This document shows, in pieces, positions 6,602 through 9,160 of a stretch of DNA of 64,000 bases; position 1 is the stretch's first letter, and every line of letters begins with the position of its first letter. This DNA comes from Escherichia coli. Lineage in GTDB: Bacteria; Pseudomonadota; Gammaproteobacteria; Enterobacterales; Enterobacteriaceae. The notes beneath the pieces are model-generated. The model worked only from the letters and a program-made list of their open reading frames with translations, had not been told where the DNA came from and ran no database searches. The position numbers and the translations under genes are program-made. The stretch is taken from NCBI RefSeq assembly GCF_024223415.1, contig NZ_CP100503.1. One strand, 5' to 3'.

Positions 6602-7264
6602 ATGCTCGCCTGGAGGCTGAATTTGCAGCTGAGAATGAACATACCACCCAGGGCGACTAGGACTGTTTTTTGTGTCGGTAGCGGTCCGTCACTCACTCGT
6701 GAGGACTGTGCTGCTATAGAAAAAACTGGCTGTTCAATCATCGCGGTTAACAATTCCTGGCAGATGTTCGATGACATTTATGCCTTATACGCCGGTGATT
6801 TGTCATGGTGGAAGCAATACGGATCCACCATACCGGGAGGGAGATTCCGCAAAGTGACAGCCAACCTGGCGGCGGCGAAATCATTTTCGTTGGAGTACAG
6901 GCGATATTGTGGACCGGCGGAAGGGGTAAATAGCGGCGCGCAGGCTATCAGTCTGGCTGCTGAATCAGGGGCTGAAGTAGTGGTATTAGTCGGCTATGAC
7001 TGTTCTCTGCAAAACGGCCTTCATTGGCATGGCGCGCACCCTCAAGCCCTACGGAATCCAACGCAGGTTTCTATTTCAAAATGGCAACAGCAGTTCCTGG
7101 ATACCCGCAAAAAACACGCAGATTTACATATTTTGAATGCAAGTAGGAGCAGTGCAATTCAATGTTTCCCAAGAATAAATTTAGAGGCAGTGATCGCGTT
7201 ATTATCGTCGGCAGTGGCCCAAGCGCCGCAAACTTTGTTGCGCCGCGCGGAGTGCCGATTATAG
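6602..7264 (+). CDS. Hypothetical Rossmann-like protein with GSGPS motif (Maf/DUF115-like), paralog 1
   Basis: 220 aa; start may be the internal MNIPP at 6635; VGSGPS motif shared with next gene. Confidence 0.35.
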   Translation: MLAWRLNLQLRMNIPPRATRTVFCVGSGPSLTREDCAAIEKTGCSIIAVNNSWQMFDDIYALYAGDLSWWKQYGSTIPGGRFRKVTANLAAAKSFSLEYRRYCGPAEGVNSGAQAISLAAESGAEVVVLVGYDCSLQNGLHWHGAHPQALRNPTQVSISKWQQQFLDTRKKHADLHILNASRSSAIQCFPRINLEAVIALLSSAVAQAPQTLLRRAECRL

Positions 7265-7788
7265 CGGTCAATGGGGCCATCGACTGGCTGAACCGCGCTT
7301 CTTATTTTTTCACACTTGATCCATCGCCAGACAATATGCGGCGCGTTGGTCGTGGCCGCCGTCGCCGTGGTGTTTGTTATTGCATGGCACTACCCGATGT
7401 TAAAGAACGTGAAGTCAGAGACGGCGTTCTGTGCTTCCGTCGTGTGGCTGAACGTGGCATGGAGCCAAAAAATACGAATTCTCCCGAGTGGTGGGCGTGG
7501 CGCTGGTCCGCACATTTCGGACTTTGCGAAGATGAGAATGAAATTGCCAGCGGCAATAGTGCATATGGTGCTCTGAACCTGGCTTTCCATATCGGATTCA
7601 AACATGTCGCCCTGGTGGGCGTTGACGCTACACAAGAACCACGCGTTCACTCCGGCGGCACGCCAAAAAATCTAAGTCACCTGCCTTTGTTATTCCAGTC
7701 TGCGCGTGAACGGATTGACGTTGTTTCATGCGGGAAAATGGGAGGTATTCCGCAGATGACTCTTAAAGAATGGCTGAAGAATACATGA
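7162..7788 (+). CDS. Hypothetical Rossmann-like protein with GSGPS motif (Maf/DUF115-like), paralog 2
   Basis: 208 aa; IIVGSGPS...IIAVNGA motif; overlaps the previous ORF by about 100 bp. Confidence 0.35.
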
Positions 7789-8462
7789 TGGCACCCACAA
7801 TTTATCACCGTATCGACGGTACCAAATACAGGAATGTCTGGGTTGTTGGTGATCTGCATGGTTGCTACACCAGACTGATGTCCGAACTCCATCGTGTGGA
7901 TTTTGACCCGGCGCAGGATTTACTGATATCGGTCGGCGACCTTATCGATCGCGGTACTGAAAATGTCGAATGTCTGGAACTATTGCAGATGCCCTGGTTC
8001 AGGGCAGTGATGGGGAACCATGAGCGGCTGATGATTGATGCGTTAAGTCCAGATGGCAACGTGAATAACTGGCTAATGAATGGCGGACAATGGTTCTTCA
8101 TGCTGGACACTGATCAGGAAATATTAGCCTGGGCGCTGGTGGAGCTGGTAAAGCGTCTGCCCTATATCATTGAGTTGAACACCGGGCAAGAAACTATCGT
8201 TATAGCCCATGCCGACTATCCGGATAATGAATACCAATTCGGTAAGGAGGTGCCGCTTTTCAACGTTGTCTGGGCGCGCGAGCGTATCAGTGATTCGATG
8301 GATGATATTGGTGGCGAAATTTCGGGCGCAGATCGTTTTATCTTTGGTCACACTCCGGTGAAAAGCCCGAAGACATTCTGGAATCAGCAGTATATCGACA
8401 CTGGTGCCGTATTTTGCGGAAACCTGACATTGATGAAAGTGAAAGGTGATGGTGCAGCATGA
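7770..8462 (+). CDS. ppp: Serine/threonine protein phosphatase (lambda PPase-like metallophosphoesterase)
   Basis: 230 aa; GDLHG, GDLIDRG, GNHE, GHTP motifs; close match to my recollection of lambda PPase. Confidence 0.75.
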
Positions 8463-9160
8463 AGATTGCTTTAGTTTTTCGCTCTGGTGGTGACTATAAC
8501 GCTTCCGATGTGCAGTGGCTGGTTAATCAACTGCCAAAAGGCTATGAAATTATTTGCCTGACAGACCTGAAGCGTTTACATGTACCTGGCGTCAAAGTTG
8601 TCCCATTGATCAACCAGTGGCAAAAGTGCCGTGGCTGGTGGGCGAAAATAGAGTTGTTCCGACCGGATATAACCGATGATCTGTTCTATCTGGATTTGGA
8701 CACGGTTATTGCCGGTGATATACGCCCAATCCTAGAGCATCCACCAACCAGCTTCACCATGCTTAGGGATTTTTACCATCCACAATATCGTGGCAGCGGT
8801 GCCCTGTGGATACCAAATAGTGTTAAAGCGCATATCTGGAGTTCATTCTGGCAAGATCCGGAAGGTTGGATTTCTCGTTGTGTCACTACTGAGTGCTGGG
8901 GTGATCAGGGGTTCTTACGGAAGGTTATGGGCGATGATACACCAGCATTTCAGGATCTGTATCCAGGATGGTTTGTAAGTTACAAGGCCGATGTTGTGGA
9001 ACCTGGTTCAAAATATGCGAGCGCGCGTTACTCCAGGGGGAATGGGGCATTACCAAAAGACTGCCGAATAATCTTTTTCCACGGCAAACCGCGACCTCGC
9101 GAAGTGTCAGAGGATTGGCTTCCCCTTATCAGCTCATTTTTTGAGCGAGAATCAGAATAA
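8459..9160 (+). CDS. Hypothetical protein, possible nucleotide-sugar transferase (DxD-like LDLDT motif)
   Basis: 233 aa ORF translationally coupled to the phosphatase gene. Confidence 0.35.

Follow-up and report, generated by a model that had tools for sequence, protein, structure and literature searches.

A late cassette of probable glycosyltransferases, with a lambda-type phosphatase as passenger, in phage P1 and other tailed phages of Proteobacteria

Introduction

Few phages are used as much in genetics as P1, and about half of its genes are without a defined role (PMC9024508). Since the annotation of the P1 genome, a block of four overlapping genes, pmgO, pmgP, ppp, and pmgQ, has carried the label “putative morphogenetic function,” a term applied to three of the four. 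Here, we analyze this block as it occurs at positions 6602–9160 of a 64,000-nucleotide (nt) Escherichia coli sequence; that whole stretch is called the window, and all coordinates are those of the window. In all probability, the block is the P1 version of a glycosyltransferase cassette in which ppp is a passenger. The best reading of its role, which we hold tentatively and as nearly an even call, is that of a late glycan cassette, with a structural protein of the virion as its most likely acceptor.

The bare identification of these genes is not new, since they already have names and annotations in public databases suggest glycosyltransferases. The automated RefSeq names of their products are “alpha-2,3-sialyltransferase,” “norphogenetic protein,” “metallophosphoesterase,” and “glycosyltransferase.” The first two of these are over-specific database names that are corrected here; “sialyltransferase” on a P1 gene is a fold-level label and not a demonstrated activity. 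Searches of the literature (for the gene names, DUF115 or MptE with phage, P1 with glycan, and NinI) returned no functional study of these genes. The literature searched likewise contained neither the conserved modular cassette nor its separation from ppp, and neither its regular occurrence in late operons for head, neck, tail, and lysis of diverse proteobacterial phages nor the hypothesis of virion glycosylation.

Results

The Cassette and Its Variable Slot

The window contains a P1-type phage-plasmid, with bases 5500–11500 matching P1 records over their full length at 98.2–98.6% DNA identity. The four open reading frames (ORFs) between 6602 and 9160, which a preliminary description of this DNA had already delimited correctly, are the annotated P1 genes pmgO, pmgP, ppp, and pmgQ:

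6602–7264, + strand: pmgO, 220 amino acids (aa), predicted transferase of the Maf/MptE/GT42 fold, paralog 1; VGSGPS encoded at 6674–6691
7162–7788, + strand: pmgP, 208 aa, predicted transferase of the Maf/MptE/GT42 fold, paralog 2; VGSGPS encoded at 7207–7224
7770–8462, + strand: ppp, 230 aa, predicted lambda-type Ser/Thr metallophosphatase of the PPP family
8459–9160, + strand: pmgQ, 233 aa, predicted GT8-like retaining glycosyltransferase; DLD encoded at 8693–8701

Consecutive ORFs overlap by 103 nt (pmgO/pmgP), 19 nt (pmgP/ppp), and 4 nt (ppp/pmgQ).

Related loci were sought by scanning viral contigs and public assemblies with hidden Markov models of the four proteins. The P1-based scan gave near-identical copies of P1 only, and the diverged viral loci were retrieved by using a distant PmgP homolog as the lead. 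Among 80 near-identical P1-type contigs, 77 carry all four genes; in the remaining three, a full-length match to pmgQ is all that is missing, possibly due to contig ends. In the diverged loci, PmgP adjoins PmgQ without exception (28 of 28), as it does in three more bacterial genomes (Pseudomonas, Alloalcanivorax, and Citrobacter), and PmgO stands alongside the PmgP–PmgQ pair in about 22 of the 28. The phosphatase gene follows a different pattern. It is present in six of these 28 loci, all P1-like (L099 and L106–L110), and other P1-like loci (L093, L098, L102, L103, and L111) have PmgO, PmgP, and PmgQ with no ppp. The position that ppp occupies in P1 is taken by an S-adenosylmethionine (SAM) methyltransferase in L090, L097, L101, and L163 (L104 has an unscanned ORF of the same size there) and by a Nucleotid_trans-like glycosyltransferase in L089 (L092 has an ORF of equal size); in L003 the latter type of enzyme comes after PmgQ. 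Since ppp is absent from all of the non-P1-like copies and from several of the P1-like ones, it lies outside the pathway: it is an insertion of the P1 lineage in a variable slot, and an independent passenger.

The same family members also occur as fused or duplicated proteins. A natural PmgO–PmgP fusion exists (P0051), as do tandem double-domain proteins (P0223, P0243, P0266, and P0303) and a fusion of PmgO to a TylF-type sugar O-methyltransferase (P0311). We conclude that the functional unit is a glycan-building cassette composed of PmgO and/or PmgP, PmgQ, and optional tailoring enzymes; many tailed phages of Proteobacteria that are not otherwise related have its core in common. All of the organisms named for family members in the homolog listings belong to the Proteobacteria, and none of the four proteins matched the anti-phage defense models of PADLOC. 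The preliminary description had proposed a protein or DNA modification pathway rather than classical structural genes. This proposal stands for the three transferases, which recur with sugar-tailoring enzymes and whose deletions are viable, but it does not extend to the phosphatase, and the DNA half of it is unlikely, since the loci examined have no hydroxymethyl-base genes alongside the cassette.

In another protein (P0230), a PmgO-type domain is fused to Ig-like Big_1/Big_13 domains. In one prophage (L165, 2029–3699), such a fusion has a holin gene on one side and a GT2 gene on the other, with a PmgQ-like gene next in order, and in Serratia plymuthica (L004, 10001–12442) a PmgO-like gene adjoins two Big_1 proteins. 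Proteins with Ig-like domains may serve as acceptors or as targeting modules.

PmgO and PmgP Are Distant Paralogs

The motif VGSGPS, which includes the GSGPS that the preliminary description had noted in two overlapping paralogs, occurs at residues 25–30 of PmgO and 16–21 of PmgP. A direct BLASTP comparison of the two proteins aligns only their N-terminal 36 residues (E = 0.003), and single-sequence searches of the PDB with PmgO, PmgP, and PmgQ found nothing significant; family profiles were therefore needed. Alignments were built of 32 relatives of PmgO (down to 37% identity) and 42 relatives of PmgP, with the natural fusion protein left out. When the two families were compared with hhalign, they aligned over 162 columns with a probability of 98.2% (E = 5.2e-14). 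The motifs common to both are GSGPS, an Asn after strand 2, an Asp, (N)SG, and G-x-D followed by His. There are also weak cross-matches between the PHROG families of the two proteins; PmgP, which is 99% identical to the P1 PmgP cluster, belongs to PHROG 2111 at 4e-132. This profile–profile comparison shows PmgO and PmgP to be true, old paralogs, related over their full length and anciently diverged.

The only Pfam family that either protein touches is MptE-like (PF01973, formerly DUF115), at 23.4 bits for PmgO (E = 5.7e-5) and 21.0 bits for PmgP (E = 3.2e-4), scores that are below the curated cut-off and come from the C-terminal G-x-D region of the model alone. Several relatives pass that cut-off (the L003 fusion with 45.2 bits, P0223 with 41.5, and P0243 with 43.6), and many homologs carry a precomputed PF01973 annotation. 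PmgO and PmgP have the single Rossmann-like alpha/beta core that is common to Maf, MptE, TPK, and GT42, that is, the “sialyltransferase-like” fold of Maf, Cst-I/II, and MptE. Against the PDB, 8 of the 12 weak matches of the PmgO family profile are GT42 sialyltransferases, at non-significant E values of 0.1–0.64; these alignments fall on the GPSL and SG...G-x-D motifs of PmgO. For Cst-I and Cst-II of Campylobacter jejuni (2P56 and 1RO7), the similarity is likewise non-significant (E = 0.1–0.6). A conserved His lies beyond the G-x-D motif in both proteins (H141 and H143 in PmgO and H173 in PmgP). The PmgO-type domain defines a large family: an exhaustive profile search found 7,582 representatives at 50% identity with E <=1e-3, 3,770 with E <=1e-10, and 484 with E <=1e-30.

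The likeness to Maf, suggested in the preliminary description, holds at the level of the fold. Maf (motility accessory factor) of Magnetospirillum magneticum (5MU5), of the flagellin glycosyltransferases for nonulosonic acids, is a protein of about 630 aa with flanking domains, whereas PmgO and PmgP (208–220 aa) consist of the core alone; the alignment covers 164 residues of the 632-residue 5mu5 chain. Unlike Maf, PmgO and PmgP form a diverged pair that is always found with a GT8-like partner, and neither flagellin genes nor genes for the synthesis of cytidine monophosphate (CMP)-nonulosonic acids (pseudaminic or legionaminic acid) were present in the P1-type block or in any of the related loci inspected, which number more than 30.

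A specific relationship to the Kdo III transferase WaaZ was also considered and was dropped. The NCBIfam WaaZ model (TIGR04437) scores 11.9 bits with PmgP (E = 0.11; the cut-off is 200 bits), and hhalign against WaaZ of K-12 gave probabilities of 15% for PmgP and 11% for PmgO, with an overlap restricted to the shared G-x-D region. We retain this resemblance only as a hint about the donor sugar.

PmgQ Resembles GT8 Glycosyltransferases and Ppp the Lambda Phosphatase

The evidence concerning PmgQ comes from both its predicted structure and its family profile, and it bears out the “possible sugar transferase” that had been proposed on the basis of a DxD motif. The AlphaFold2 model has a predicted local distance difference test (pLDDT) score of 94.5 and gives 146 Foldseek matches at E <=1e-3. 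Every listed top match is a GT8 enzyme with a probability of 1.00: Gat1, glycogenin, LgtC, GlyE, WbbM, XXYLT1, LARGE1, and UGGT. The family profile finds GT8 structures in the PDB (6mw5 at 1.6e-6 and 5gvv at 0.0025), and its alignment with 6mw5 begins ahead of the DxD, takes in GDQG, and reaches the PRP/KPW motif at the C-terminus.

The stretch D79-L80-D81-T82 is invariant in the 33 members of the PmgQ family, as are G148, D149, H208, P211, and P213, with Q150 nearly so. DLD corresponds to the metal site of GT8, WGDQGF to its GDQG motif, and FHGxPRP to its His motif at the C-terminus. PmgQ thus combines a GT-A fold with DxD, GDQ, and a C-terminal His, features common to glycogenin, Gat1 (which acts on Skp1), GlyE, and LgtC. 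The identity to these enzymes is 10–17%, PmgQ has FHGxPRP where GT8 has HxxGxxKPW, and its family is phage-specific (PHROG 1962). Matches to Glyco_transf_8 (PF01501) occur in 11 of the 33 family members, with a best E value of 0.026. The model and the profile together indicate that PmgQ is probably a divergent, GT8-type retaining glycosyltransferase that is metal-dependent (DxD and His).

Ppp is an ortholog of the lambda phosphatase, a metallophosphatase of the PPP family, in keeping with the lambda-type phosphatase of the preliminary description. It scores 59.3 bits with Pfam Metallophos (cut-off 21.5) and matches the lambda enzyme (1G5B) over residues 11–229 at E = 1.5e-94, with GDLHG, GDLIDRG, and GNHE aligned; in the P1 annotation the identity of the two is 64%. 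With the equivalogs for PrpA and PrpB (NF008516 and NF007425), it scores 272.5 and 239.5 bits, below their cut-offs of 326 and 332. The similarity to lambda NinI is thus full length and includes all of the metallophosphoesterase motifs, but the settings differ: NinI belongs to the nin region, and Ppp lies inside a glycosyltransferase cassette.

The Cassette Lies in Late Regions

All of the copies of the cassette that were examined lie in late regions, either inside the structural operon or beside the lysis genes. In the Ochrobactrum-type prophage (GCA_013087535.1), the order is capsid, connector, PmgP, PmgQ, and head completion, with junctions that abut or overlap. PmgO, PmgP, and PmgQ follow the capsid gene in L091 and in the Pseudomonas prophage L162 (GCA_009295765.1), and they precede the connector in L100; in L097 the order is capsid, a 98-aa gene, PmgO, PmgP, methyltransferase, and PmgQ. 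The portal gene of L089 is followed by PmgO and the genes after it, and the P0311 contig has the connector, the PmgO–methyltransferase fusion, a 257-aa gene, and head completion. A position between the capsid or connector and head completion, with tight or overlapping junctions, is found in L087, L091, L097, L162, the P0311 contig, and ERZ1426824, and in one locus PmgQ-like and MptE-like genes are followed by head completion. The cassette lies beside the lysis genes, upstream of the terminase genes, in L003, L095, L163, L164, L165, and L004. In P1 itself, the annotation places the block between the tail and baseplate genes 24-7-25-26 and pmgR/pmgS.

More distant members of the PmgO-type family have comparable surroundings. 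One (L166, 7001–8736) has an SPP1-type capsid gene, a 102-aa gene, a tandem enzyme, and a hexapeptide acyltransferase. In another (L167, 4996–8149), the tail genes are preceded by three other glycosyltransferase genes (two TOD1/MUCI70-like and one GT2) and a tandem enzyme, and a third (L168, 7001–9026) has head completion, a PmgO-like gene, a methyltransferase (Methyltransf_23), and an HK97 gp10-like gene. The presence of sugar-tailoring neighbors next to these distant members points to diverse phage glycan cassettes.

Late Expression and Dispensability in P1

The regulatory elements known from P1 were located in the window either by operator matching or through the near-identical alignment:

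5505–5523, + strand: LPpmgL, late promoter at the head of the pmgL-to-pmgQ unit (P1 annotation, transferred by alignment)
5538–5554, - strand: O26, C1 operator, found with two mismatches (P1 annotation)
6406–6432: PpmgN, predicted sigma-70 promoter (P1 annotation, mapped by alignment)
6445–6461: Oppp, C1 operator with a substitution relative to P1 (P1 annotation, mapped by alignment)
9162–9178 (+ strand) and 9211–9227 (- strand): OpmgRa and OpmgRb, C1 operators, with PpmgR, at the downstream boundary of the unit (operator matches and P1 annotation)

LPpmgL, O26, OpmgRa, and OpmgRb are all conserved in the window, in agreement with the earlier suggestion of a single operon. Because of this conservation of the late promoter and the C1 operators, the pmgO–pmgQ block is predicted to be repressed in the lysogen and expressed during lytic growth.

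In published P1 studies, both CRISPR interference (CRISPRi) knock-downs and in-frame deletions of pmgO, pmgP, ppp, and pmgQ gave normal plating, and the four deletions had no anti-restriction phenotype against EcoK, EcoA, or EcoB. The main text of a study of the virion proteome lists only PmgC and PmgG as virion-associated among the proteins of previously unknown function.

Other Features of the Region

Oppp was not detected in the window at <=3 mismatches to the C1 consensus. The intergenic segment between pmgM and pmgN that overlaps it (about 6455–6485) is the patch most diverged from P1 in a kilobase that is otherwise 99% identical.

6505–6660, + strand: pmgN, 51 aa, upstream ORF that overlaps the annotated start of pmgO (PHROG 2350)

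This gene belongs to the same transcription unit as pmgO–pmgQ. Published data on it disagree: it is essential by CRISPRi (efficiency of plating 1.4e-2) and dispensable by in-frame deletion. Simple polarity does not account for the discrepancy, since the knock-downs from pmgO to pmgQ were without effect. Residues 1–15 of annotated PmgO (6602–6646) have a pLDDT below 50 and are missing from most homologs; the true start may be the ATG at 6635 (Met12), in which case the overlap with pmgN would be shorter.

The 103-nt overlap of pmgO and pmgP contains, in the pmgO frame, a canonical -1 slippery heptamer, A_AAT_TTA, at 7177–7183, and pmgP is in the -1 frame relative to pmgO in 16 of 18 loci. A programmed -1 frameshift that would fuse PmgO to PmgP was considered and rejected; the heptamer is probably due to chance, because it is not conserved in the diverged relatives and pmgP has a ribosome-binding site of its own (AGGAG at 7146–7150).

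PmgM (5860–6438) is VRR-NUC-like, slightly under the cut-off (21.2 vs. 23.8 bits). The product of pap (10797–11303), an acid phosphatase according to its annotation, has a match of 45.3 bits to the HAD phosphatase domain of polynucleotide kinase-phosphatase (PF25109). Immediately after pap, there is a type I restriction-modification locus (11556–17591, - strand) with hsdR (1038 aa), hsdS (412 aa), and hsdM (520 aa), at the place where P1 itself has pmgT–pmgV. The segment 11300–19300 is at least 80% present in 473 PLSDB plasmids, and the P1 annotation records homology of the hsd-locus junction to the hsd flanks of EcoDXXI and R124.

Discussion

The three transferase-fold proteins of the P1 block are conserved and, to judge from their motifs, apparently catalytically intact. 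Their translations, read by eye without a prediction tool, showed no evident signal sequence at the N-terminus and no long run of hydrophobic residues. The cassette would be cytoplasmic, and it would be expressed in the lytic cycle from the C1-repressed pmgL operon with its late promoter. PmgQ may transfer a hexose from a uridine diphosphate (UDP)-sugar with retention of configuration. PmgO and PmgP would transfer an ulosonic acid carried by a CMP-sugar, since CMP-ulosonic acids are the known donors for glycosyltransferases with this fold; they probably act as a pair, as the natural fusions suggest. K-12 hosts of E. coli are not known to make CMP-sialic acid, and CMP-Kdo is the only known CMP-sugar of K-12; CMP-Kdo would then be the candidate donor. 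The acceptor would be a late-made protein of the nascent particle, most likely a structural protein of the virion, an assignment that, by itself, we consider possible though short of probable. The particles would thereby carry a glycan without which the phage can grow in the laboratory, as with the virions of mycobacteriophages. The variable slot holds tailoring enzymes: a SAM methyltransferase, extra glycosyltransferases, or, in more distant relatives, an acyltransferase; in the P1 lineage it holds ppp.

The closest parallel is provided by the mycobacteriophages. According to two papers (PMC11256854, PMC11600133) that cite Freeman et al. 2023, Che8 and cluster O phages use glycosyltransferases and an O-methyltransferase of their own to glycosylate the capsid and tail tube, and these genes are dispensable for growth. 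Such cassettes are likewise phage-encoded and combine two or three glycosyltransferases, in many cases together with an O-methyltransferase, a logic of gene content that matches the variants described here; the analogy is one of gene content and position only. The enzyme families and the hosts differ, with Maf/MptE-like and GT8-like enzymes in phages of Proteobacteria here. According to these papers, the glycosylation genes of Maravista are close to its genome's 3' end, whereas the present cassette is often inside the head–neck operon. A more specific form of our proposal, which we regard as rather unlikely, would make this the first system for glycosylating virions in phages of Gram-negative bacteria. 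In it, a Maf-like pair and a GT8-like enzyme would draw on nucleotide sugars of the host, with CMP-Kdo and a UDP-hexose as plausible donors, and build a short glycan, variably methylated or acylated, on the capsid or neck proteins of P1 and of many HK97-like and other prophages.

Several observations weigh against a cassette that modifies the virion. About a third of the genomic contexts adjoin lysis genes and not head genes, and the P1 cassette itself is not beside the capsid gene. Unrelated cargo can also occupy positions in late operons; moreover, some of the sampled loci are relatives of one another, so that their contexts cannot be counted as independent events. P1 particles have no reported glycan, and the P1 virion study mentions no post-translational modification. 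PmgO and PmgP also fall short of the PF01973 gathering cut-off of 34.6 bits, and PmgQ, with no Pfam match at E <=1, is formally outside PF01501.

A different target for the same transferases would be the host envelope. PmgO and PmgP would then act like WaaZ and PmgQ like WaaO or WaaJ, on the core of the lipopolysaccharide (LPS) or another surface glycan, and the P1 receptor (the terminal glucose of the core) would be masked or destroyed, so that progeny are spared from binding to debris or superinfection is blocked. The weak match of PmgP to the NCBIfam WaaZ model (E = 0.11) speaks for this, as do the precomputed Pfam annotation of the P0051 fusion, which is faintly WaaZ_KDO_III (PF27901), the presence of LgtC, a GT8 enzyme of lipooligosaccharide, among the top fold matches of PmgQ, and the proteobacterial identity of every organism named for the family, with CMP-Kdo as the only known CMP-sugar of K-12. 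However, the profile comparisons with K-12 WaaZ are insignificant and confined to the G-x-D region, and that of WaaO with PmgQ has a probability of 5.7%. The cassette lies in late, repressor-controlled operons, often translationally coupled to head genes, which is the wrong regulation for a surface conversion, and it is never found in a lysogenic-conversion position. Receptor that is already on the surface could presumably not be replaced by LPS made in the last minutes before lysis. We consider an envelope target, and with it the protection of the progeny, improbable.

The MptE-like match raises another alternative, to which we give little credence: that PmgO and PmgP are pyrophosphokinases of the MptE/TPK type, or other enzymes that depend on nucleotides and have a small molecule or a phospho-intermediate as substrate, and act with Ppp and Pap in a phosphoryl-transfer pathway. 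The fold would permit this, the one Pfam family matched is named after a pterin pyrophosphokinase, ppp is inside the block, and pap, with its phosphatase domain of the HAD PNKP type, is 1.6 kb downstream. The PDB sequence matches that fall on the motifs are nevertheless all to GT42, at non-significant E values. The constant partner is GT8-like, the optional ones are sugar-tailoring enzymes that include the fused TylF O-methyltransferase, and ppp is missing from every cassette that is not P1-like.

If the cassette is a glycosylation system, its acceptor could also be phage DNA, as in base hypermodification, or a host protein, and this too we think quite improbable. Diverse phage glycosyltransferases that hypermodify DNA are known (bioRxiv 10.1101/2023.12.21.572611; PMC13326640), and enzymes with the GT8 fold include cytoplasmic modifiers of proteins such as Gat1 on Skp1. 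In none of the loci examined, however, is there a hydroxymethylase, TET-like, or base-modifying gene beside the cassette; the P1 deletions have no anti-restriction phenotype, and nothing in the gene context indicates a host target.

The least probable alternative, that all four genes form a single pathway in which Ppp, for example, dephosphorylates the acceptor or a sugar-phosphate intermediate, would fit the overlaps of the P1 ORFs (103, 19, and 4 nt) and the joint presence of the four genes in 77 of 80 near-identical contigs, but the ppp slot holds a methyltransferase or glycosyltransferase in other phages, the other three genes occur without ppp in five P1-like loci, and Ppp is a full-length match to a lambda enzyme whose gene, ninI, is not known to have an associated glycosyltransferase in the nin region.

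The preliminary description had allowed that its proposal would fall if the GSGPS proteins matched unrelated, well characterized P1 proteins. They do match named P1 proteins, but this is so only formally, since those proteins are themselves uncharacterized. The sensitive profile searches that it advised find GT8 structures with the PmgQ family, 1G5B with Ppp, and GT42 with the PmgO family, the last at non-significant E values only, and both of its guesses, Maf/DUF115-like proteins and a sugar transferase, are borne out at the level of the fold by this profile and fold evidence.

The finding of a portable cassette that recurs in head, neck, and tail operons turns an anonymous block of P1 into a concrete hypothesis that is cheaply testable, because the deletion mutants already exist (Gonzales et al. 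2022). The likeness is to known phage-encoded glycosylation cassettes, with other enzyme families and other hosts. If the LPS should prove to be the target instead, the receptor would be modified late in infection in a way that is new. If particles are glycosylated, virion glycosylation would extend beyond the actinobacteriophages described in the papers cited above, with relevance to phage therapy (through recognition by antibodies), to the stability of particles, and to delivery vectors based on P1. Since the PmgO-type family has thousands of clusters at 50% identity, it would then represent a widespread and overlooked layer of the biology of phage particles, one that may affect their stability, adsorption, or recognition by the immune system.

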